A DNA stretch of 10,589 nt from Candidatus Thorarchaeota archaeon (GTDB taxonomy: Archaea > Asgardarchaeota > Thorarchaeia > Thorarchaeales > Thorarchaeaceae), in assembly GCA_048884785.1 (NCBI GenBank), contig JBHLQM010000084.1, positions 1-10,589 of the forward strand. Reading direction: 5' to 3'. Position numbers and translations under genes: made by a program. The notes beneath the pieces were generated by a model that had not been told where the DNA came from, did no database searches, and was given only the letters and a program-made list of their open reading frames with translations. Each line of letters opens with the position of its first letter. Position 1 is the stretch's first letter. Positions 546 to 10,589 of this stretch are shown piece after piece.

Positions 546-869
546 TTACTCTTCATCATATGTCTCTTCAAATGGATCTTCGATGGGAGGAATATCAATG
601 TCCTCATCAGGGACCTCCTTGAGTTCCTCTTGACGCTCTTTTATGTACTGTTGAGTTCGACGATGTGAAGACCATAGGTCTGCGTATACAGCCCCTACTA
701 GGAATGTGGTAAGTGCTCCTGTCAATGCGATTATAGTTCCAAGGAATTGGAGGAAATAAACAAAGGTCATAGCCCATCCTCCAAACATCAGAATGAACGG
801 AACTAACAGAATACGTTTCGGGGGTTTATTTCGAGTTCTTGGAAAAGCCCTTACGGTCATTCTTGACAT
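546..869 (-). CDS. Small hypothetical membrane protein (2 TM helices, basic N-terminus, acidic C-terminal tail)
   Basis: 107 aa. R/K-rich N-terminus, two adjacent hydrophobic stretches (ILLVPFILMFGGWAMTFVYF; FLGTIIALTGALTTFLVGAVYA), a short charged helix and a D/E/P-rich tail. It fills an otherwise empty gap and is followed by a terminator-like element. Confidence 0.7.
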   Translation of the reverse strand: MSRMTVRAFPRTRNKPPKRILLVPFILMFGGWAMTFVYFLQFLGTIIALTGALTTFLVGAVYADLWSSHRRTQQYIKERQEELKEVPDEDIDIPPIEDPFEETYDEE

Positions 870-1056: not shown

Positions 1057-1140
1057 CCGACCTCATGGCAACGATAGCCTAAGAAGGACGAGGCCCATGC
1101 CTTGCCCAGAGTCACTATTGGCTCGATGGAGTGTACAATC

Positions 1141-2130
1141 ATGCCCTTGCTGGACATTCGAAATCTTAGGATGTACTACCAAACACAGAAGGGTCTTGTA
1201 AAAGCAGTCGACAACGTTTCCCTGACTCTGGAACCTGGTGAGTCAATTGGACTAGCAGGTGAATCAGGTTGCGGGAAGTCAAGCCTAGCATATTCAATTA
1301 TGCAACTTCTTCCGCCTGCAGCGAACTTAGTCGGTGGAAATGTGTACTTCAAGGGTGAAGACTTAATTCGCAAGACCGCGAAGGAAATGCGCGATATCCG
1401 TTGGAAGAATGTTGCTATTGTCTTCCAAGGCGCAATGAACGCGTTGAATCCTGTCTTTGAGATAGGAGAACAGATTGCTGAAGCTATTCTCATGCATGAG
1501 AATGTGACTGAGGAAGAGGCATTAGACCGCTGTGCAAAGCTCTTTGAGATGGTAGGTCTCGACCCAAGTCGTATTCATAACTATCCTCACGAATTTTCAG
1601 GAGGTATGCGACAGAGAGCTATGATCGCTATGGCTCTTGCATGCAATCCTGATCTCGTTATTGCAGATGAGCCTACTACAGCCCTTGATGTCACAATTCA
1701 AGCGCAAATCTTGAAGCTCATGCAGAAGCTTCAGAAGGATCTTGGTCTTTCACTCATTCTGATTACACATGACCTGAGTGTTATTGCTGAAACCTGTGAT
1801 AAGACCGCAATCATGTACGCCGGAAAAATAGTTGAGCTAGCAGATGTTGTTTCTGTATTCAAGGATCCTATCCACCCATATGCTACTGGTTTAGTAGGTG
1901 CAATTCCTAGTATGGTGAAGGCTGAGCAGAAGAAGCTAACTTCTATTCCAGGATCTCCACCAGATCTTATCTCACCTCCGCCAGGTTGTAGATTCCATCC
2001 TAGATGCCCATATGCTCAAGACATTTGTTCTAAGGAAGACCCATTGCCACTTGAAATAGAGCCTGATAGGTTTGTTTCCTGTCACTTTGCTGAGCAGCTT
2101 AGAGGCGAGATTCAAATAGACTTGGAGTGA
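1141..2130 (+). CDS. dppD: Peptide/nickel ABC transporter ATP-binding protein, DppD/OppD type
   Basis: Walker [10 protein letters not shown]-loop [12 protein letters not shown], signature [12 protein letters not shown], Walker [14 protein letters not shown]-loop ITHD, and a C-terminal HPY domain with GCRFHPRC...C...CHF. Start is placed at ATG 1141 (MPLLDIRNL) rather than TTG 1102 because GGAGTG precedes it. Confidence 0.95.
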
Positions 2131-2133
2131 TAG

Positions 2134-3195
2134 ATGTTGACAATAGACGAATCAAGAGTACTGCAGGGTTCAGATGACATCAAAGATGGCGAAACTCTAA
2201 TTTCCGTCAGGAATATGCGAAAATGGTTTGCAGTAAACACAGGTTTTCTATCATCAATGTTGTATAAACAAGAACTATTTGTGAAGGCAGTAGATGGAGT
2301 CAGCTTTGATATTAAGAAAGGAGAAGTACTTGTACTGGCAGGGGAGTCAGGTTGCGGAAAAACCACAACTGGCAGATGTATTCTCCATCTTGAGATTCCG
2401 ACAGACGGAGATGTAATCTATGCTGGCCAAAACCTAGCAACCCTTGACAGGAACGAAATTAAGGAACTTAGGAAGCGAATGCAAATCACATTCCAAGATC
2501 CCTACGAATCACTCAATCCGAAGCAAAGCATTTTCAATATTGTTCAAGAGCCACTGATGGTTCATAAAATACCCCTAACTCCAAGCCAGAGGCGTCAGAG
2601 AGTCCTTGAGGCAATGGAGAGTGTTGCTCTCACACCAGCCGAGGACTACATTGATAGATTTCCTCACGAGCTGTCCGGCGGACAGAGACAAAGAATATCG
2701 GTGGCTAGAGCTCTTATTTTGCACCCCGAGTTTATGGTGGCAGATGAACCAGTTTCGATGCTCGATGTGTCCATTCGTGCGGAAATTCTGAATCTACTGC
2801 TAAACCTACGTGAAGAGCTTGGTCTCACCTACCTGTTTATCACTCATGACCTTGCTGTAGCAACATATATAGCTGATAGAATCGGAATTATGTACCTCGG
2901 GAAGGTTATGGAATTAGGACCAGCCCATGATGTCGCTTTCACTCCAATGCATCCGTATACGAGAGCCTTGATTTCGGCTGTACCCTCTGGAGACCCAACT
3001 GTGAAAAGGCGTATAGAGTCATTGAAGGGAGAGCCTCCGAGTCCTATCAATGTGCCTTCAGGTTGTCGCTTCCATCCCAGATGTCCTTATGCGCAGGAAA
3101 TCTGTGTGAGAGAGGTTCCTGAAGATAGAAACATAGGTGATGGACATATTGTCGCATGCCACTTCGCTGGCGAATTGCCTGAAGTTCAACTTTAA
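2134..3195 (+). CDS. dppF: Peptide/nickel ABC transporter ATP-binding protein, DppF/OppF type
   Basis: VKAVDGVSF, Walker [48 protein letters not shown], and an HPY domain with four conserved Cys. The RBS GGAGTGA overlaps the dppD stop. Confidence 0.95.
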   Translation: MLTIDESRVLQGSDDIKDGETLISVRNMRKWFAVNTGFLSSMLYKQELFVKAVDGVSFDIKKGEVLVLAGESGCGKTTTGRCILHLEIPTDGDVIYAGQNLATLDRNEIKELRKRMQITFQDPYESLNPKQSIFNIVQEPLMVHKIPLTPSQRRQRVLEAMESVALTPAEDYIDRFPHELSGGQRQRISVARALILHPEFMVADEPVSMLDVSIRAEILNLLLNLREELGLTYLFITHDLAVATYIADRIGIMYLGKVMELGPAHDVAFTPMHPYTRALISAVPSGDPTVKRRIESLKGEPPSPINVPSGCRFHPRCPYAQEICVREVPEDRNIGDGHIVACHFAGELPEVQL

Positions 3196-3270: not shown

Positions 3271-3711
3271 ATGATGACAGATACTGCTGACCGACTACGC
3301 ATCTTGCGAGCAATAAGGAAATGCTTGGCAGATGGTGAAGAGTATTTCCAGAAGGCTATGGACATACTTGATGAGATAGGTAAAGGTTCAATCGGTGTAG
3401 GTATGACTCCATTAGTAGGAGGATACGCAATAAAAGATCCAAAAAGCCATTATCGTGGTGCATTGATTGAAATCGACTCAGCTGAAAGGGCACTAGAACC
3501 GCTCATAACTCGATTCAGAGATGGACGAGTTAATGAGTCTCATTTCAAATCAAAAGATGCTATTGTCTTGCTGGGAGATCTTGCTGGTGTAGATTATAAC
3601 TATATTGTGAGAAAACTAGCTGATCAATCAGGTCGAGAGTCCACTTGGTATCGATTGAAAGAACTTAGAGCTAAAATCGAACAACTGCTAGGATTAATTG
3701 CAGATGCCTAG
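3271..3711 (+). CDS. Hypothetical protein, probably a soluble alpha-helical bundle
   Basis: 146-aa ORF with AAGGTGAA directly upstream, amphipathic helical patterning and no competing ORF. No family recognised. Confidence 0.8.
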   Translation: MMTDTADRLRILRAIRKCLADGEEYFQKAMDILDEIGKGSIGVGMTPLVGGYAIKDPKSHYRGALIEIDSAERALEPLITRFRDGRVNESHFKSKDAIVLLGDLAGVDYNYIVRKLADQSGRESTWYRLKELRAKIEQLLGLIADA

Positions 3712-3737
3712 CTCTAATAATCATCCTATCAAACTAG

Positions 3738-3750
3738 GAAAGATAATAAC
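3738..3750 (+). promoter_or_regulatory. Candidate BRE/TATA promoter for the FGase-like/ligase unit
   Basis: GAAAGATAATAAC: a purine-rich block plus an AT-rich box about 55-65 nt upstream of ATG 3804. Confidence 0.3.
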
Positions 3751-3803
3751 GATAGAGCAGAATTGTTGCTTGCCGAGGATAATTCTGAGAGTGGTATGAG
3801 CAT

Positions 3804-4475
3804 ATGTCCAACAGTTTTGAACCGATGAGTATTCTCAAAGAACTTGAACGCGCAGAACACGTTCTCAACAACCTTCTGCATAAACTCTCGAATCTTTACA
3901 CAAATCTCGAGCCGATGGAAAGTGTCCTTAGAGTCAGTGATTTCTCTTCAAGTGGTATGATTGTTCCGGGGTCGATGACTGGGATTGTGTGTGCATTGAC
4001 TGCGGATATTAAAGGTGATCCAATTTACAAGGTCTTAGAATTGCTCAAAGGCAAAGGCCTGAAACTTCCAGCTATCATCAAGGGATCTGATCGAACTGAA
4101 TCAATAGAAACCTGTGATTCAATCATGAAGATTATCAAAGCGCAGTTCAATCAGAAAATAACTCGCTTGCTGGTGAATCTGAGATGGTCATCGCTGCCAC
4201 CTATAATTGAAAATGACAATGTCGTAATTATCGGAACAAGATACATACATGGGAATTCACAAGATATTGCGAGATTTAAAAATAGACTCAAAGAATTGAA
4301 CATAGACGTTTTTGAAGACAACGGCGAATTTGGGGGAGGTTTACTGACATATAAACTGACTACCTTTGCTAGAGAAGTTGATAATGTAATTGTGCTCGAG
4401 CTCACTCTCTCTTCAGCACTTTCGGAAGATGTTTCAATGATGGCAAGGATTTTGGAAGCTATAGCTACGCCTTAG
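3804..4475 (+). CDS. Hypothetical protein with N-terminal helix and degenerate N-formylglutamate amidohydrolase (Zn-exopeptidase)-like domain
   Basis: 223 aa. Motif order RLLVNLRWS / VIIGTRY / EDNGEFGGGLLT / VIVLELTLSSAL parallels the FGase pattern llDcHS / ivlGt.yg / N.pf.GGyiT / vhaiQiEi.r.ly. The CDS itself is well supported; the fold call is by eye. Confidence 0.6.
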   Translation: MSNSFEPMSILKELERAEHVLNNLLHKLSNLYTNLEPMESVLRVSDFSSSGMIVPGSMTGIVCALTADIKGDPIYKVLELLKGKGLKLPAIIKGSDRTESIETCDSIMKIIKAQFNQKITRLLVNLRWSSLPPIIENDNVVIIGTRYIHGNSQDIARFKNRLKELNIDVFEDNGEFGGGLLTYKLTTFAREVDNVIVLELTLSSALSEDVSMMARILEAIATP

Positions 4476-4484
4476 GTGTTCATT

Positions 4485-7400
4485 ATGAGTTCATTCTCAA
4501 ATGCTTCAGAGATGCAATTACCTTTTCCTCATGGAGTAGAGATTGAACTTCAGGTCATTCGCAAGGACGGCACATGGATTCGAGGTGAAGATGTTCTTGA
4601 AATCTTTGACAAGATTGTATCAAGTGCAAAGGGATTGCTGGATAAGAAGATACGAACCTCTTCAGTAGAAACTGTAAGGCAGAAGTATGAGCAATCTTCA
4701 CAAACAGAAGAAGGAGAAAGGGGGTCAAGAATAGTTGCAACATACAAAGATCCAGCAGGAAATCCCAAAGAATACACGCTCCTAGGACATGATCCAAACG
4801 TGGTCAGTCTGACATGGATTTTAGAAGTAGCAACACCGCCATGCACTACGCTTGAAGAACTTGCATGGTGGATTCAAACACTCATAGCAATAACATATGA
4901 ATCTCTACCAAAAGACTCCCAGGCAATTCTCATCTCCACAGGTTTGAATCCAACTCAAGAGTATCTTAGGAATCTGTCCTTTGGGGAACATCACCATATC
5001 CTCAGTGAAGATGTTGATGAAACCATAAAGATTGCTGTGTATAATATGATTCGAAATTTCATCCCACATCTGATTGCTCTGTCTGTAAATTCGCCATTTG
5101 AAAGCAAGAAACCAAGTGATGAAATTAGCATTGATGAAGATGGAATTGTCCGAGCTCCACGCTGTAAGAGATCAATTAGACTCTTTAGAAACACAACACA
5201 GATGGGGCCAACAAATGAGTTTGAATTTATACCCCATATTCGAGTAGCAGATAAAGATGCTTTTGCCAAACATGTCAATAGAAGCTATTCAAGAATGGTT
5301 GACTGTTACCCATTCACAGATTATGGAACTATCGAGCTTAGAGTCTTCGATACACAACTGAGCATCCCAAGAAGAATGGGACTAGCACTAATCCTTCAAG
5401 CTCTAGCTTTGAAAGCAAAACGTATGATTGAGAATGGTGAAGCAATACCTGATGTGGGCGCAAAGTCACTAAGTGCAAACAGAGCCTCTGCTGTGGCGGC
5501 AGGTCTATGGGGACCATTTAGACCAGGAGAGGGTTCCGATGAATATCATACGGTCTATAACCATCAAGTATCTGATGGTGGTAGTGTTGATACCGCAAAA
5601 CGAAACAGATTCCTTGGCGATGCTGTAATATCAATGCTCTATCTTATCCGTGATGAACTTGATGAACTAAAGGTTGTTGAAAATCCATTCATGCAAGCTT
5701 TACTTGTGTCTGTGTTTGGGAGTGAGTACACAAATCCACGAACTACCGAAGCTGATTTTCAACTTGATGTCTATGCTAAATCAGATTACAATATGGTCGT
5801 ATTATTAAAGCGTCTTGCAGAAGTCACAAGAGAATGTAGCACAAATTGGCTTTACGATCCAATAGAGGGAACCCCTCATCTTCCTACTTGGTTATGTTGG
5901 TGGAAAGGACTCGAGCCAGAAATAGTCATAGACACAGACAGAACATTTGCAGGTCAAGAGGCAGAGTTCTCTATCCTAATCCGCAACAGCACGGGAAGGA
6001 ACCTTGATAATCTGACGGTTAAATATTCAGTTGAAGATTCATTAAGAAATACTATAGACAATAATCTTCTTGCAATTGATAGTATTGAAACAGGAGAAAT
6101 ACATGTTTCTCGAGTTGCATTCCCGACTCGAAAGGACACCTCTGCATACAATATTATTATGGAAGTGGGCTTTGCTGGACGCCAAATCAACCTTACAAAT
6201 ACAATTAACATGTACTGGATGAGCGCGTCAGTGCGTCCTGGTACAACAACTCAATTTGCAGATGGAAAAACGCCTGTTCTGTTCAACGGTGAGATTGAAA
6301 CCAATTATGCATCCGACTCACTTGTGAATTGCCAAATCAATATCCTTGCGCCTAATTTGGAGCGAATCATAGTTGGTACTGCAGAGATGCTCAGGGTGGA
6401 TGCTGGGGAAATCACTACGTTTGATAGCTCGTTCTTCCCATCACTCATTATTCCCCCGGATATCGCGGAAGGCGTGGAAAGATGTGTGCTGCAGATACGT
6501 TTGATGAATGAAGAGGGTACTGAGATAGCTGAAAGTACATCAAAGCCCTTCTATGTGGGTTTCGTTAAAAGAGGCCCACAAATCATCTTCGAGTCGGATT
6601 TGAAGAGCAGCTACACACCAGGTGAATTGGTTGTAGGGCATATTGTAGTAAGTGACAGAAATAATACAATTGGACCATCAGCAAGAATGATGGTTGACTA
6701 CTATTCTGAATCCGGGAAAACTACTGATATTGAAACTTTTCAGTATGAGGAATTCATGAAAGGAAGTGCGACCTTTCAGTGGAGAATCCCAAGAGCAGAT
6801 GTCATGCCTCAAATTGAGAGAGTAGGTGTTATCAGAGTACGTGTGATTGAGAGAGGAAATGTCATTACATCGATTGAGTCAGATAGATTCAGTATAGACC
6901 AAGTGACTACTCGAGTCAATCTAGATTCTATGAGAGTTCCTCAGCGTTCTCATATTGGGGGCAAAATATCAGGATGGTTACGCATACGGAGAAACACTGA
7001 ACAGGGAGACCCAGCCTTTCTTACATTATCATTTGTCTTTCCTGATGATGAAGAACATGTTGTTCTTAGACAAGCAGTGAAGCAAAGTAAGAATCTATCC
7101 TTGGCTTTCGGACCACTGACCATCCCAGCCTCAAAAAGAAGCACGAGCCCTAAATCTGTCAAGCTTGTGGCTGTGCTTAGCTATGTAGGTCTAGAGATGG
7201 ATAGACGGTCAACAACCATTGATTTAGTAGGAGGCCCCTCAGCAGATTTTGCGCGGATTGACTTCATTGGACTCCCGAGTTTTACAGTACCAGATCAGAT
7301 GCTTCAAGTGACAATCCAGGTCGAATCTGGTTTGAGAGAAACAATAGATTGCGTTCTTTCAGTGGGACTTGAATCTATTGCGGGCAACTCCATTCTTTTT

Positions 7401-7910
7401 GAGAGGAATATCAATCTTGAACCAGGAAAGCCAAAGATGATTCCGGTACCCTTCAGAGTGCCTCTAGGTGCAGAAATGAGTACTGCTCATTTGAAGGCAG
7501 TGCTCATGTGTGGCTCTCAATCCTGTGAAAACAGCCAGCGCTTTAAGGTAAAAGCAATAGAAAAACCGTTCTTCAATGTTGGATTTTCCATAAGGAATGA
7601 AGCAGGTGAAGAAATACCCGGACTTGTTGCCAGACTTACTCCTGTAGAGATTATTGTGGATATAGAGAGTGCAAGAGAAGATTTGCAGGACCTTGGGATC
7701 AATGTGAGAGTTATATCAAGACGCGACATAATCAAGGAGTTTGATATCCCACTTTCCAATCAAAAGAAGAATACAGTTTCTATGAAATGGCTTACACCCC
7801 CTATTGATGTTGTGACCGGCTATTTTCTAGATGCTGAAATTTCACAACATGGACGCCCTCTCCCGCATCGTGCAGTTGAGATGGTGAAAAAACAATTCAC
7901 TGTCTATTAG
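4485..7910 (+). CDS. Glutamate--cysteine ligase family 2 (GCS2/YbdK-like carboxylate-amine ligase) fused to ~6 beta-sandwich (Ig-like) domains
   Basis: N-terminal motifs in canonical order: GVEIELQV, GHD...ILEVATPPC, STGLNP, FGEHHHI, PHLIALSVNSPF, SIR, YGTIELRVFDTQ. From nt ~5913 the sequence is all beta-strand patterned. Start is placed at ATG 4485 because AGGTG (4474-4478) is suitably spaced as an RBS; the ORF track starts at GTG 4476. Confidence 0.85.
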   Translation: MSSFSNASEMQLPFPHGVEIELQVIRKDGTWIRGEDVLEIFDKIVSSAKGLLDKKIRTSSVETVRQKYEQSSQTEEGERGSRIVATYKDPAGNPKEYTLLGHDPNVVSLTWILEVATPPCTTLEELAWWIQTLIAITYESLPKDSQAILISTGLNPTQEYLRNLSFGEHHHILSEDVDETIKIAVYNMIRNFIPHLIALSVNSPFESKKPSDEISIDEDGIVRAPRCKRSIRLFRNTTQMGPTNEFEFIPHIRVADKDAFAKHVNRSYSRMVDCYPFTDYGTIELRVFDTQLSIPRRMGLALILQALALKAKRMIENGEAIPDVGAKSLSANRASAVAAGLWGPFRPGEGSDEYHTVYNHQVSDGGSVDTAKRNRFLGDAVISMLYLIRDELDELKVVENPFMQALLVSVFGSEYTNPRTTEADFQLDVYAKSDYNMVVLLKRLAEVTRECSTNWLYDPIEGTPHLPTWLCWWKGLEPEIVIDTDRTFAGQEAEFSILIRNSTGRNLDNLTVKYSVEDSLRNTIDNNLLAIDSIETGEIHVSRVAFPTRKDTSAYNIIMEVGFAGRQINLTNTINMYWMSASVRPGTTTQFADGKTPVLFNGEIETNYASDSLVNCQINILAPNLERIIVGTAEMLRVDAGEITTFDSSFFPSLIIPPDIAEGVERCVLQIRLMNEEGTEIAESTSKPFYVGFVKRGPQIIFESDLKSSYTPGELVVGHIVVSDRNNTIGPSARMMVDYYSESGKTTDIETFQYEEFMKGSATFQWRIPRADVMPQIERVGVIRVRVIERGNVITSIESDRFSIDQVTTRVNLDSMRVPQRSHIGGKISGWLRIRRNTEQGDPAFLTLSFVFPDDEEHVVLRQAVKQSKNLSLAFGPLTIPASKRSTSPKSVKLVAVLSYVGLEMDRRSTTIDLVGGPSADFARIDFIGLPSFTVPDQMLQVTIQVESGLRETIDCVLSVGLESIAGNSILFERNINLEPGKPKMIPVPFRVPLGAEMSTAHLKAVLMCGSQSCENSQRFKVKAIEKPFFNVGFSIRNEAGEEIPGLVARLTPVEIIVDIESAREDLQDLGINVRVISRRDIIKEFDIPLSNQKKNTVSMKWLTPPIDVVTGYFLDAEISQHGRPLPHRAVEMVKKQFTVY

Positions 7911-8260: not shown

Positions 8261-9187
8261 ATGTTTGAGATACTAGCATATCCGGCAGTTTCCGGATTAT
8301 TGGTGATGGGCGTTGTTGGAGCCTTGGCTTATAAGGCTCATTTTGTTGACATATCAGGTCTAATCAGTGCCTTCATTGTAGGATTTACAATCTGGTACAC
8401 TGGAGGAGTTTCAGCTTTTGTGATCATTCTGTTTTTCTTTCTGAGCGCGGGAGTTGCTACTAAATACAAGTACAAGGTAAAGATTCAGAAGAACGTTGCC
8501 CAAGAAGGTAAGGGCAAGAGATCGTGGAAAAATGTGTTTGGTAGCGGTCTCATTCCGATGATGTTCTCGGTTGCTGTATACCTCACTAGACTTTCTCCTG
8601 ATTTGGCAGCCGCAGGTTGGCCATTCTTTCTATTTGGAGGATACGTAGGTGCAGTGGCAACAACATCTGCAGATACTCTAGCTAGTGAGCTTGGCGTCTT
8701 TAGTAGGAGCAAACCAAGACTTATAACAAATCTTCGACGAAAAGTCCCCAGTGGCACAATTGGGGCGGTATCACTCCTAGGAGAAGCCGCGGCTCTTCTA
8801 GCTGGACTTTCAGTCGGCCTTATTGCTATCTTCTTTGCAGTATTTACCCCTGGATGGGTACCTGCTGTGACAACCACTGAGCATGTGATCTTCCTTGTTC
8901 CTTTGGCTGTCTTAACTGCATTCATTGGATGTAATGTTGATAGTTTCCTTGGTGCATCTTTTCAGAATAGATTCGTATGTGAAATCTGCGGAGCTGTTAC
9001 TGACAAGGATTTCCACTGCGATTACGAAACAAAATATGTTGGAGGCTTCAAGAGCTTTACAAACATGCATGTGAATTTTGGCTCATCAGGAATGGGGGCA
9101 ACACTTGGTGTCCTTCTCGGGGCGGGTTTGTTTGTATGGATACTCGGCGGTCTATTCTTCTGGATTGCAGCATCATCTAGTAGCTAA
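8261..9187 (+). CDS. DUF92/TMEM19 family integral membrane protein
   Basis: Multiple TM helices and the family pattern SGLISAFIVG, FFLSAGVATKYKYKVK, RSWKNVFGSG, SADTLASELG, PRLITNLRRKVPSGTIGAVSLLG, VDSFLGASFQ, FTNMHVNF. Confidence 0.9.
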   Translation: MFEILAYPAVSGLLVMGVVGALAYKAHFVDISGLISAFIVGFTIWYTGGVSAFVIILFFFLSAGVATKYKYKVKIQKNVAQEGKGKRSWKNVFGSGLIPMMFSVAVYLTRLSPDLAAAGWPFFLFGGYVGAVATTSADTLASELGVFSRSKPRLITNLRRKVPSGTIGAVSLLGEAAALLAGLSVGLIAIFFAVFTPGWVPAVTTTEHVIFLVPLAVLTAFIGCNVDSFLGASFQNRFVCEICGAVTDKDFHCDYETKYVGGFKSFTNMHVNFGSSGMGATLGVLLGAGLFVWILGGLFFWIAASSSS

Positions 9188-10530
9188 GTCTTTCCGGTTT
9201 TATCCTCCTCGAATTCTATCCCATATTCAAACGCTTTCTTGATTGTTGAACCATCGATAATCCTTTTCATAAAGCCCGCAACAAACCAACGTGTCAGTTC
9301 AGTAGACTTGCTGCTGCTTTGAACCGACACTTCTTGCTCTTCCACCATATTTAGCTTGTAGATATTCTTCGTTTCTTTGATAATAATCGCTGCATCTGAA
9401 ATTTCCCGGATCTTCTGTATTGGTTTAGGAGTCATAGTGCGACTAAGATGACGCCAGACCTGATTTGAGAGAATGAGTGTATCAACCTGAACAAGAACAG
9501 GTTTCAACCAATCAAGACCCATCTCCCAAAACGGGACAGAACATCTATACACAAGTGGAATTCCATGAGCTTTTGCATATGCAGCGATTGATGCAGCAAC
9601 TTCTACAAACAACTCACCAATGTACACGGCTTTCGCCTTTTCCACTATACTCCAAGGAACCTGAGAGGGAGAGTTAATTGAAAGAGACGTGATTGGGCCT
9701 ATCCCAACAAGCATCCGGGACTTGTTGTTTTCTGAAATAATAATTGACTCGTTTGTAGACTTACCATCCTCGACGACGATGTTTGTGACATCGACATCTC
9801 CTTGAATCAGCTGAGTAATGACTTCCCAACCTTCAAGGTCGTTTCCTACGGATGACACTAAAGATGTGTCAATACCTTCTCCTGCCAAAGCTATTGCAAG
9901 CTCAATTGTAGACCCACCTGGCGACCGAACGGGAGAACTACAACTAGCGAGTCCACCAATGGGTGGAATCTTGGCGCATTCTATTCTGGTATTGTATGCA
10001 GACGCACCAAAGACAACTATGTCAGGTTGTGAATATTTGGAGGAGTCTTCAAGTATTGCCTTTGCACGAGTACGTGCGAAAATTTCAAACAACCTAGATT
10101 CTGGAATACTAAGATCTTTGTAGAGAGTTGTTAGTCGGATCAGATAATCCTCTAATAGAAATGCAGTGAGCTCTTCAATATCTGAGGGCAAGCCTTCAGA
10201 ATAGAACCGAGCAAATCCCCATCCGCTCTTTGTAAGCTCATGATAGACAACACGCTTCCCATTATGAATAGTTGATGCAGTCGTGATTAGACCAAATCGA
10301 CTGAGTATTTTAAGGTACGAGAGAATACTCTTGTTTGAATGCCGGAGATTCTCAATGAGATCCCGTTGCAATACACGACCATCTTCACGAAAGCTTGAGA
10401 GCACGCTACGAGTGATTCGCGATGCCATAACAGTACGGATGAATTCATCTCTGACCTCGTTGTCTGATGGAAGAAAGAGCAGATAGGGCCAGAGAGGTTC
10501 AATTGGATTTACTTCGACCATTCCCAACAT
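9184..10530 (-). CDS. Winged-HTH domain fused to a degenerate PfkB/ribokinase-family domain (probable transcriptional regulator)
   Basis: N-terminal wHTH pattern (VLQRDLIENLRHSNKSILSYLKILSRFGLI...GKRVVYHELTKSGW), a helical linker, then the PfkB scaffold DIVVFG, SPGGS, LAIALAGEG, VSSVGNDLEG, DVDVTNI, FVAGF. The start could be 10536 (TTG), 10530 or 10521 (ATG). Its stop overlaps the DUF92 stop by 4 bp (9184-9187). Confidence 0.85.
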   Translation of the reverse strand: MLGMVEVNPIEPLWPYLLFLPSDNEVRDEFIRTVMASRITRSVLSSFREDGRVLQRDLIENLRHSNKSILSYLKILSRFGLITTASTIHNGKRVVYHELTKSGWGFARFYSEGLPSDIEELTAFLLEDYLIRLTTLYKDLSIPESRLFEIFARTRAKAILEDSSKYSQPDIVVFGASAYNTRIECAKIPPIGGLASCSSPVRSPGGSTIELAIALAGEGIDTSLVSSVGNDLEGWEVITQLIQGDVDVTNIVVEDGKSTNESIIISENNKSRMLVGIGPITSLSINSPSQVPWSIVEKAKAVYIGELFVEVAASIAAYAKAHGIPLVYRCSVPFWEMGLDWLKPVLVQVDTLILSNQVWRHLSRTMTPKPIQKIREISDAAIIIKETKNIYKLNMVEEQEVSVQSSSKSTELTRWFVAGFMKRIIDGSTIKKAFEYGIEFEEDKTGKT

Positions 10531-10589
10531 CTTCAAATATCGGTTTACTACGCTCTACAAGTGTACAATCGTACCTATGTAGTTTACTG

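Follow-up and report, generated by a model that had tools for sequence, protein, structure and literature searches.

An Asgard family of apparently active GCS2/YbdK-type ligases with variable appendages, linked to a metal hydrolase and a Cdc48N-vWA protein

The window analysed here, a contig of 10,589 nucleotides from a genome bin of Candidatus Thorarchaeota archaeon (JBHLQM010000084.1, assembly GCA_048884785.1), encodes a protein of 1141 amino acids (aa) in which an apparently active, ATP-dependent carboxylate-amine ligase domain is followed by a predicted tail of six immunoglobulin (Ig)-like β-sandwiches. The ligase belongs to the GCS2/YbdK superfamily by fold and motifs, and it forms a distinct subfamily by sequence score, a specific insertion, architecture and genomic context. 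The 1141-aa protein is the Thorarchaeota form of an Asgard ligase family that carries variable appendages and is almost always fused, and whose genes form a module with those of an Amidohydro_2-type metal hydrolase and of a protein combining Cdc48N and vWA domains. No known organisms are more closely related to eukaryotes than the Asgard archaea, whose lineage-specific conserved systems have for the most part not been characterised. The present system stands out for an apparently intact amide-bond ligase that is Asgard-only in the samples searched, nearly universal in several Asgard classes and not found in any sampled genome of others (for instance families f5, f12 and f14; families of the phylum are referred to by number), and that appears to be inherited, duplicated and lost with the hydrolase and usually with the vWA/Cdc48N protein. 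No published description of the Asgard ligase or of the module was found, and the text of the Asgard asCOG preprint is silent on them; the architecture had not been recognised as a described one in the original prediction, which a model made from the letters of the window, and no paper on it came to light.

The ligase domain

The ligase open reading frame (ORF) runs on the forward strand from 4476 (GTG) or 4485 (ATG) to 7910 and is the sole long ORF of that strand stretch. Because homologues begin at the ATG, we place the start at 4485, which gives the length of 1141 aa. A word-indexed search returned 154 relatives, the best 120 of which are 1130-1153 aa long or fragments, show 49-95% identity and are nearly all labelled Thorarchaeota; in the databases these relatives are named 'hypothetical' or 'glutamate-cysteine ligase family protein'.

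In the Thorarchaeota protein, the N-terminal domain is the best-conserved region and is predicted to adopt a glutamine-synthetase-type fold superposable on YbdK. Residues 1-480, folded with an alignment of 51 diverse family sequences, gave a model with a predicted local distance difference test (pLDDT) value of 94.7 and a predicted template modelling (pTM) score of 0.95. An exhaustive structural comparison of this model places YbdK-type 1tt4 at top rank (32.6; root mean square deviation of 3.0 Å over 331 residues), followed by plant glutamate-cysteine ligase (25.5), Dop (20.1), PafA (19.0) and glutamine synthetases (9-16). Foldseek agrees with the YbdK-first ranking, GmaS is among the fold matches, and an Atlas fold search with the ligase domain returned its own family alone. 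At the level of sequence, the family profile detects YbdK with an E value of 1.9e-16, in an alignment that covers the GhExE strand, the LE strand, the G.H.H strand, the 'PH.IALS..SP' helix and the 'GT.E.R..D' strand. Pfam GCS2 (PF04107) is recognised by a narrow margin (24.3 bits versus a cutoff of 21) and over aa 162-205 alone, the same model matching all 29 aligned homologues at E ≤ 0.05 (best 1.2e-06) and being the annotation of most database homologues. The GCS2/YbdK-type ligase predicted for the N terminus is thus upheld by Pfam, fold and profile. The NCBIfam equivalogs of YbdK and GshA (TIGR02050, NF0100xx) all score far under their cutoffs, the best reaching 60.9 bits versus 176.4.

All four motifs singled out in the original prediction (GVEIE, LEVAT, GEHHH and TIELR) are present, and they are conserved in the 51 members. 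Across these diverse proteins, which share 25-40% pairwise identity, residues E19, E21, E114, H169, H171, E284 and R286 are invariant or at least 90% conserved, E21 being invariant and E19 and E114 at least 90% conserved. GhExE is the Mg/ATP signature of carboxylate-amine ligases (PMC2588565). This signature, the YbdK fold and the near-invariance of the metal, ATP and catalytic residues lead us to regard the domain as a catalytically intact and apparently active ATP-dependent carboxylate-amine ligase.

The substrate site appears to differ from that of YbdK, because the arginine of the YbdK DIRP loop has been replaced and because a conserved insertion of about 50 residues (aa 205-255) carries the invariant R232. 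The DIRP loop arginine, which lies before core strand 5 in YbdK, is absent from the corresponding segment (D273-C-Y275-P276, a short way upstream of the TIELR strand), where Y275 is at least 90% conserved in Thorarchaeota. The insertion is conserved within the Asgard ligase family, and its R232 may stand in for the lost arginine.

YbdK/GCS2 ligases (PF04107; Escherichia coli YbdK 1r8g, Salmonella 1tt4) are the nearest known enzymes and have fold and motifs in common with the Asgard ligase. The latter is about 110 residues longer than YbdK, owing to the 50-aa insertion and a longer helical C terminus, and further differs by the tyrosine in place of the DIRP arginine, the six Ig-like domains of the Thorarchaeota form, fixed gene partners and its Asgard-only occurrence in the searched data. 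The premise that GCS2 enzymes are normally stand-alone proteins of roughly 350-450 aa has to be qualified for this distinct subfamily, whose domain alone measures about 460 aa and is almost always fused. The pupylation enzymes PafA and Dop are structurally further from the Asgard ligase than YbdK is.

The Ig-like tail

A full-length AlphaFold2 model built on a 29-sequence alignment predicts residues 476-1141 to be all-β and arranged in six strand blocks, with pLDDT values of about 80-90. These blocks coincide with the six β-rich modules of about 100-115 aa that had been delimited from the sequence, and each of the terminal strands quoted for them (LTNTINM, STSKPFYV, IESDRFSI, RRSTTIDL, NSQRFKV and KKQFTVY) is the last strand of its block (residues 566-575, 689-692, 802-804, 903-914, 1012-1022 and 1136-1140). 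Foldseek with the whole tail ranks strings of MG domains of α2-macroglobulin and complement best (E values of 1e-21 to 1e-17, TM-scores of 0.1-0.2), and realignment at the domain level gives RbmA and the Ig domains of GH2 enzymes, the matches being of Ig, FnIII and MG-like type. Pfam matches to the tail (MG2, CARDB and Mannosidase_ig) are all sub-threshold: MG2 on the first domain, D1, reaches 18.5 bits versus a cutoff of 32.8, with sub-threshold matches in 10 of the 29 homologues, and no other α2-macroglobulin domains were detected. Modelling therefore confirms the tail as a predicted array of tandem Ig-like β-sandwiches to which no specific Ig family can be assigned.

While the β-sandwich array proposed for the six modules stands, their recognisability as mutual sequence repeats does not: in hhalign comparisons, domains D1-D6 are not recognisable as repeats of each other, except for a weak similarity among D3, D4 and D5 (probability 23-29%). 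Recent tandem repetition as the origin of the tail is rejected by the same comparisons, and the lack of detectable mutual repeats among the six domains suggests that the array is old. No transmembrane helix is predicted in the protein (the Kyte-Doolittle 19-residue mean peaks at 1.41), and there is no space for a signal peptide because GhExE begins at residue 17; as the original prediction had proposed, the Thorarchaeota protein is, judging from its sequence, cytoplasmic.

Like α2-macroglobulin and complement C3, the protein contains a string of six or more β-sandwiches, but its tail is devoid of thioester, bait and CUB regions, and those proteins are secreted whereas the Asgard protein is predicted to reside in the cytoplasm; no family membership is implied. 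With the eukaryotic transglutaminases (factor XIII, TG2 and TG3) the generic Ig-like fold alone is common, since they have an unrelated, papain-like catalytic domain and catalyse an ATP-independent transamidation.

Family distribution and architectures

Many samples contribute to the more than 100 independent contigs on which the uninterrupted ORF of 1130-1153 aa is found, among them closed chromosomes and contigs of more than 1 Mb; the fusion of the ligase to the Ig-like domains is real and old. Its recurrence in more than 120 full-length homologues, together with the same domain order in other Asgard lineages, rules out the assembly chimera that had been named as a possible refutation. An Odin homologue, 30% identical along its full length, keeps the order D1-D2-D3-D4 and onward, an Asgardarchaeia homologue (28%) keeps D1-D3, and the same domain order recurs in genomes of Odin, Frey, Jord and Asgardarchaeum type. 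In several other architectures, too, the ligase is followed by D1; one of them is a giant of 3551 aa.

The proteins in which an exhaustive search of representative sequences finds the ligase domain range from 470 to 3800 aa in length, a cluster member reaching 3944 aa. In several giants the ligase domain lies near the C terminus, behind 2000-3400 residues in which Pfam matches nothing beyond GCS2. Family f9 has proteins of about 580 aa (tail-less ligases of 570-590 aa) with an N-terminal extension and no Ig tail. Two giants from metagenomic contigs, L041:6001-14223 (2740 aa) and L042:6001-17835 (3944 aa), carry the ligase near the C terminus behind more than 2000 Pfam-blank residues.

The named members in the representative search are from Odin, Jord and Asgardarchaeia; further labels, Frey, Sigyn, Asgardarchaeum and Hermod, came from a scan of species-representative genomes. 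Three contigs are titled Thermoproteota or Bathyarchaeia, and both Thermoproteota-titled ones belong to a genome placed among Jord-type genomes; in the searched data, the ligase family is confined to genomes labelled or classified as Asgard. A survey of 301 genomes of the phylum at E ≤ 1e-10 detects the ligase domain in 184, with about 175 strong matches; the remaining matches, about nine, are weak (E values of 1e-11 to 1e-15; families f10, f16, f17 and f20) and are probably generic GCS2 proteins. The domain is present in 65 of 76 genomes of f1 (Thorarchaeota), 64 of 68 of f9, 17 of 21 of f22, 11 of 11 of f27, 6 of 6 of f19 (Frey) and 5 of 5 of f7 (Jord), and at this threshold in none of the 28 genomes of f5, 19 of f12 or 11 of f14.

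Linkage to a hydrolase and a Cdc48N-vWA protein

Thirty further loci around ligase genes (36 in all), from ten Asgard families, were scanned with hidden Markov models (HMMs) built here. In 32 of 34 related loci, an Amidohydro_2-type hydrolase gene adjoins the ligase gene or lies within about 11 kb of it (9-11 kb in Thorarchaeota). The two hydrolase-less loci end about 0.3-1.4 kb past the ligase, and the window and locus L007, on contig C6 of the same bin, likewise end too early. The hydrolase gene (about 470-525 aa) is directly beside the ligase in f9, f22, f24 and f27; in Frey, Jord and Asgardarchaeum it is one gene away, next to a gene for a Cdc48N-vWA protein of about 425-500 aa. The hydrolase-vWA pair is also found in the 11 Thorarchaeota loci with enough flank (L021-L030 and L003), at about 6-9 kb from the 3′ end of the ligase to the vWA gene, and in L001 the start of the vWA gene alone is visible before the locus ends. 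Frey and Jord genomes contain two paralogues of the ligase, and a separate hydrolase-vWA pair accompanies each; both giants examined (2740 and 3944 aa) likewise have vWA and Amidohydro_2 genes in their flanks. Most loci, not all, encode the vWA protein: in the f24 locus, a vWA protein of 764 aa is encoded 3.6 kb away from the ligase, and no 425-500-aa copy was found in the fetched f9 and f27 loci.

Both partners keep their characteristic residues. The hydrolase retains the HxH, H, H, D set (H29, H31, H182, H248 and D306, in the numbering of the first alignment sequence) and the vWA protein the DxSxS motif of a metal-ion-dependent adhesion site (MIDAS), all of these residues being invariant. 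Sequence searches confirm the VAT/Cdc48-N and vWA parts of the Cdc48N-vWA protein, and the hydrolase profile gives one marginal match in the PDB, 3nur.

A survey of the same 301 genomes for the hydrolase, at E ≤ 1e-40, gives tallies nearly equal to those of the ligase: 65/76 in f1, 5/5 in f7, 6/6 in f19, 11/11 in f27 and 62/68 in f9, and none in f5 (28 genomes), f12 (19) or f14 (11). Ligase and hydrolase are both missing from eight searched Thorarchaeota genomes, six of them 91-99% complete and the others 62% and 74%. As the genomes are related and not independent samples, this co-occurrence is to be read as a pattern and not as a statistic. Linkage and matching tallies together unite the ligase, the Amidohydro_2 hydrolase and the Cdc48N-vWA protein in one module, and the data are consistent with ligase and hydrolase being inherited, duplicated and lost together, usually with the vWA protein.

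Next to the Thorarchaeota hydrolase-vWA pair there is an ORF about 875-890 aa in length (L024:16655-19333, L025:16839-19475, L026:2422-5046, L027:1949-4582 and, in the window's own genome, contig C2 near 127668-128075). It matches the hydrolase HMM in L024, L026 and L027 (E values of 1e-17 to 1e-19) or the vWA HMM in L025 (7e-24), in a locus table that lists the best family per ORF only; these matches fit a copy of the pair that has fused and diverged. In Odin-type loci, a relative of this ORF (840-851 aa) runs divergent from the ligase operon (L008 1118-3673).

The source bin carries two copies of the gene string OppD-OppF-p146-p223-ligase-DUF92, on the window contig (C84) and on C6, where the ligase occupies 3456-6878, and the two ligases are 53% identical. 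The window ligase is 73-80% identical to single-copy orthologues of another Thorarchaeota genus, g9, and 52% to those of the bin's own genus, g1, whereas the C6 copy is 71-73% identical to its own-genus orthologues. With a bin contamination of 5.4%, the window contig is probably mis-binned, a co-binned contaminant from the other genus; the alternative, that the C6 copy is a true paralogue, was rejected because mixed binning explains these identities better. For the window gene, we infer the hydrolase and vWA linkage from orthologous loci such as L023 and from the one hydrolase-vWA pair present in the rest of the bin.

The partner protein p223

The gene directly upstream of the ligase encodes p223, whose stop codon (TAG, 4473-4475) adjoins the GTG at 4476. 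Homologues found with the p223 HMM stand directly 5′ of the Thorarchaeota-type ligase paralogue in Frey (E value of 1e-11) and Jord (1e-9). In f9, the gene directly 5′ of the tail-less ligase encodes a 620-aa protein whose C terminus aligns with p223 (hhalign 50%, E value of 1.6e-4, including a D.G.F.GG motif) and whose N-terminal domain aligns with D5 of the tail (85%, 6e-6); among Atlas entries, a 620-aa Asgard protein stands nearest to p223. With p223 as query, BLASTP did not match the upstream proteins of Odin type (235 aa) or Jord type (501 aa), and hhalign against the Odin-type upstream group gave a weak match (25%). The switching of Ig and p223 domains between ligase and neighbour by lineage is a Rosetta-stone pattern that points to the ligase, the Ig arm and p223 as one working assembly. 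Proteins of 600-620 aa with a D5-like Ig domain, a long helical middle and a p223-like C terminus are encoded at L011:5866-7728, L012:6496-8358 and L019:10320-12122.

No Pfam, NCBIfam or PDB sequence match was found for p223 (PDB at E ≤ 10). The Atlas model of the exact p223 sequence resembles the folds of N-formylglutamate amidohydrolase (FGase)-like proteins, poly-γ-glutamate hydrolase, M28 and pyroglutamyl peptidase, with TM-scores of 0.54-0.61. Pfam gives no FGase or related hydrolase match at E ≤ 1, only scattered unrelated matches at E values of 0.03-0.2, and an assignment of p223 as an FGase was rejected, since a sequence match in Pfam or the PDB is absent and fold-level likeness alone remains. 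Residues L126, D172, G177 and G178 are invariant in all lineages and are joined in Thorarchaeota by G144, R146, Y183, E199, T201 and S203. No histidine is invariant in either alignment, which makes a canonical zinc site unlikely.

Function of the module

We tentatively favour a reading, plausible though as a whole just short of probable, in which the ligase, the hydrolase, the vWA protein and the Ig arm with p223 write, erase and possibly read an amide modification of a large substrate. The ligase would activate a carboxylate as an acyl phosphate with ATP, as in glutamine-synthetase-fold chemistry; most simply this would be the γ-carboxylate of glutamate, or else one on a peptide or protein. 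The activated carboxylate would then be joined to an amine of a large substrate held or positioned by the Ig arm and p223, the metal hydrolase would take off or process the mark, and the MIDAS/Cdc48N protein would dock the marked or unmarked partner. A large substrate is favoured because the ligase is repeatedly tethered to protein-binding or very large regions, because the accessory proteins are protein-interaction modules (Cdc48N and vWA both being protein-binding) and because the pocket, on its substrate side, has been remodelled in comparison with YbdK. A macromolecular substrate, or docking on a scaffold, had also been suggested by the original prediction; the giant fusions, the vWA and hydrolase linkage and the mobile Ig and p223 domains are consistent with that suggestion, and none of them demonstrates it. 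In a more specific version, the ligase would be the writer of a hitherto unknown, Asgard-wide, ATP-dependent protein mark of isopeptide or glutamyl type, which the hydrolase erases and the Cdc48N-vWA protein reads or docks, the Ig arm and p223 selecting the targets; this version we consider rather unlikely.

Several points weigh against a module acting on a large substrate. No substrate, product or tag protein was identified in the analysis, and nothing Pup-like is visible, since p146, the sole small conserved neighbour, has a variable C terminus. Characterised Amidohydro_2 members are mostly small-molecule decarboxylases, lactonases and hydratases, not protein amidases. The existence of a tail-less ligase of 570-590 aa in some lineages indicates that the tail is not needed for the chemistry, and the relative placement of domains in the full-length model is unreliable at its pTM of 0.34. 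Finally, the window contig stops 2.7 kb past the ligase and carries neither the hydrolase gene nor the vWA gene.

The main rival, which we hold possible if doubtful, is a small-molecule pathway. The ligase would make a free amide, such as γ-glutamyl-cysteine, another thiol precursor or a γ-glutamylated amine as in Puu/GmaS, the Amidohydro_2 protein would act on the same metabolite, and the Ig tail would serve as an oligomerization device or anchor. Such a pathway would account for the tail-less forms and for the closer structural relation to YbdK and glutamate-cysteine ligase than to PafA, and it agrees with Amidohydro_2 chemistry, which is typically on small molecules, and with the occurrence of ligase-hydrolase pairs in γ-glutamylation catabolic routes. 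It sits less easily with the steady linkage to a Cdc48N-vWA protein-binding module, the fusion of the ligase to giant Pfam-unannotated regions, a substrate site that departs from YbdK and scores far under the cutoffs of the NCBIfam YbdK and GshA models. The PuuA/PuuD and GmaS pairs likewise have a glutamine-synthetase-fold ligase genomically paired with a hydrolase of its amide; unlike the Asgard ligase, these ligases are of glutamine-synthetase type, not GCS2-type, and stand alone, with no Ig tails and no vWA partner.

Quite unlikely, in our estimation, is an enzyme tied to the Opp transporter, with the Thorarchaeota ligase, p146 and p223 modifying, extending or recycling the oligopeptides moved by the Opp ABC system. 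The string OppD-OppF-p146-p223-ligase-DUF92, fixed in the window, the C6 locus and 12 further Thorarchaeota loci, would fit this idea; yet Opp adjacency is seen in Thorarchaeota loci only, and Frey, Jord, Odin and other ligase families are without it but keep the hydrolase and usually the vWA gene. Confined as it is to Thorarchaeota loci, the adjacency may reflect lineage-specific synteny without shared function. That the ligase domain is a pseudoenzyme in a purely structural protein is very unlikely: the 44 residues to which Pfam recognition is limited and the loss of one canonical loop arginine could be taken in this sense, but with pairwise identities of 25-40% the metal, ATP and catalytic residues are all invariant or close to it, in what is the best-conserved part of the protein. 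An assembly or gene-calling artefact joining a ligase gene to an unrelated Ig-repeat gene, which the unusual length and nothing else would suggest, is refuted by the same ORF on more than 100 contigs and has a negligible probability.

Two further candidates were rejected. A role in anti-phage defence finds no PADLOC match for the ligase, p223, p146, the hydrolase or the vWA protein, and the conserved syntenic position also disfavours a defence island. A Pup-like tag function of p146 fails on its non-conserved C terminus: among 13 distinct sequences from 12 Thorarchaeota loci, the C-terminal residues are E, S, A, Q, K, D, H, L and I. In contrast to pupylation, no small conserved ORF with a C-terminal Glu or Gln lies beside the Asgard ligase (p146 varies and the string has no other), the candidate eraser is a TIM barrel of the amidohydrolase superfamily and not a PafA paralogue, and the gene neighbourhoods annotated here showed no proteasome gene.

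If the favoured module does modify proteins, it would add a new ATP-dependent tagging chemistry to the ubiquitin-like, SAMP and Pup systems, and a protein mark would be an archaeal equivalent of pupylation or glutamylation, found in the prokaryotes most closely related to eukaryotes. A metabolite product would instead define an Asgard-specific compound. As the ligase is predicted to be soluble and has clear catalytic residues to mutate, the question is directly testable.

Neighbouring genes in the Thorarchaeota loci

Table 1. Coordinates of the ligase gene, its predicted domains and motifs, and neighbouring genes in the window
Feature	Position	Strand	Evidence or remark
Whole gene, 1141-aa ligase with Ig tail	4485..7910	+	>120 full-length homologues, 49-95% identity
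Carboxylate-amine ligase domain, aa 1-475, glutamine-synthetase fold, YbdK/GCS2-like (predicted)	4485..5909	+	
GhExE metal/ATP motif, G17-V-E19-I-E21	4533..4547	+	Aligned to YbdK GIELE
LEVAT strand, residues 113-117, with E114	4821..4835	+	Aligned to YbdK LELAT strand
GEHHH, residues 167-171, with H169 and H171	4983..4997	+	Aligned to YbdK GQHVH
Family-specific insertion of ~50 aa, aa 205-255, with invariant R232, plus S230 and N236	5097..5249	+	No YbdK counterpart in alignment
TIELR strand, residues 282-286, with E284 and R286	5328..5342	+	YbdK alignment, family conservation
Predicted β-sandwich D1, aa 476-577	5910..6215	+	AlphaFold2 strands; weak sub-cutoff Pfam MG2, CARDB
Predicted β-sandwich D2, aa 578-695	6216..6569	+	
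Predicted β-sandwich D3, aa 696-808	6570..6908	+	AlphaFold2 strands, profile comparison
Predicted β-sandwich D4, aa 809-918	6909..7238	+	AlphaFold2 strands, profile comparison
Predicted β-sandwich D5, aa 919-1026	7239..7562	+	
Predicted β-sandwich D6, aa 1027-1141	7563..7907	+	AlphaFold2 strands
p223 partner gene, 223 aa, α/β domain	3804..4475	+	Stop adjoins ligase start
p146, 146-aa all-helical protein	3271..3711	+	Thorarchaeota loci only, always between OppF and p223
OppD and OppF-type ABC ATPases	1102..3195	+	Head of same-strand gene string, Thorarchaeota-specific neighbours
DUF92 membrane protein	8261..9187	+	Downstream in every Thorarchaeota locus and in the same-order f2 locus L031

The genes of the fixed string are all on the same strand, with OppC divergent upstream wherever the flank allows it to be seen. 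p146 shows no family or fold match; it has a strongly conserved 'G.GM.PL.GGY' loop and is present as a tandem duplicate in L021 (2184-2621 and 2754-3191). In L001 and L003, genes for a Band_7 (stomatin-like) protein, NfeD, an Rce1-like CAAX protease and a HEAT-repeat protein lie 3′ of DUF92 (for example, L003:13631-17875) and precede the hydrolase-vWA pair. Between the divergent OppC and OppD genes, the window has a 107-aa ORF without family match (546-869, reverse strand), and genes of 107 aa (L003) and 104 aa (L004) occupy the same spot in related loci. At the other end of the window (9184-10536, reverse strand), there is a 450-aa protein in which a weak winged-HTH match precedes one to PfkB carbohydrate kinases (aa 172-338, 55 bits).

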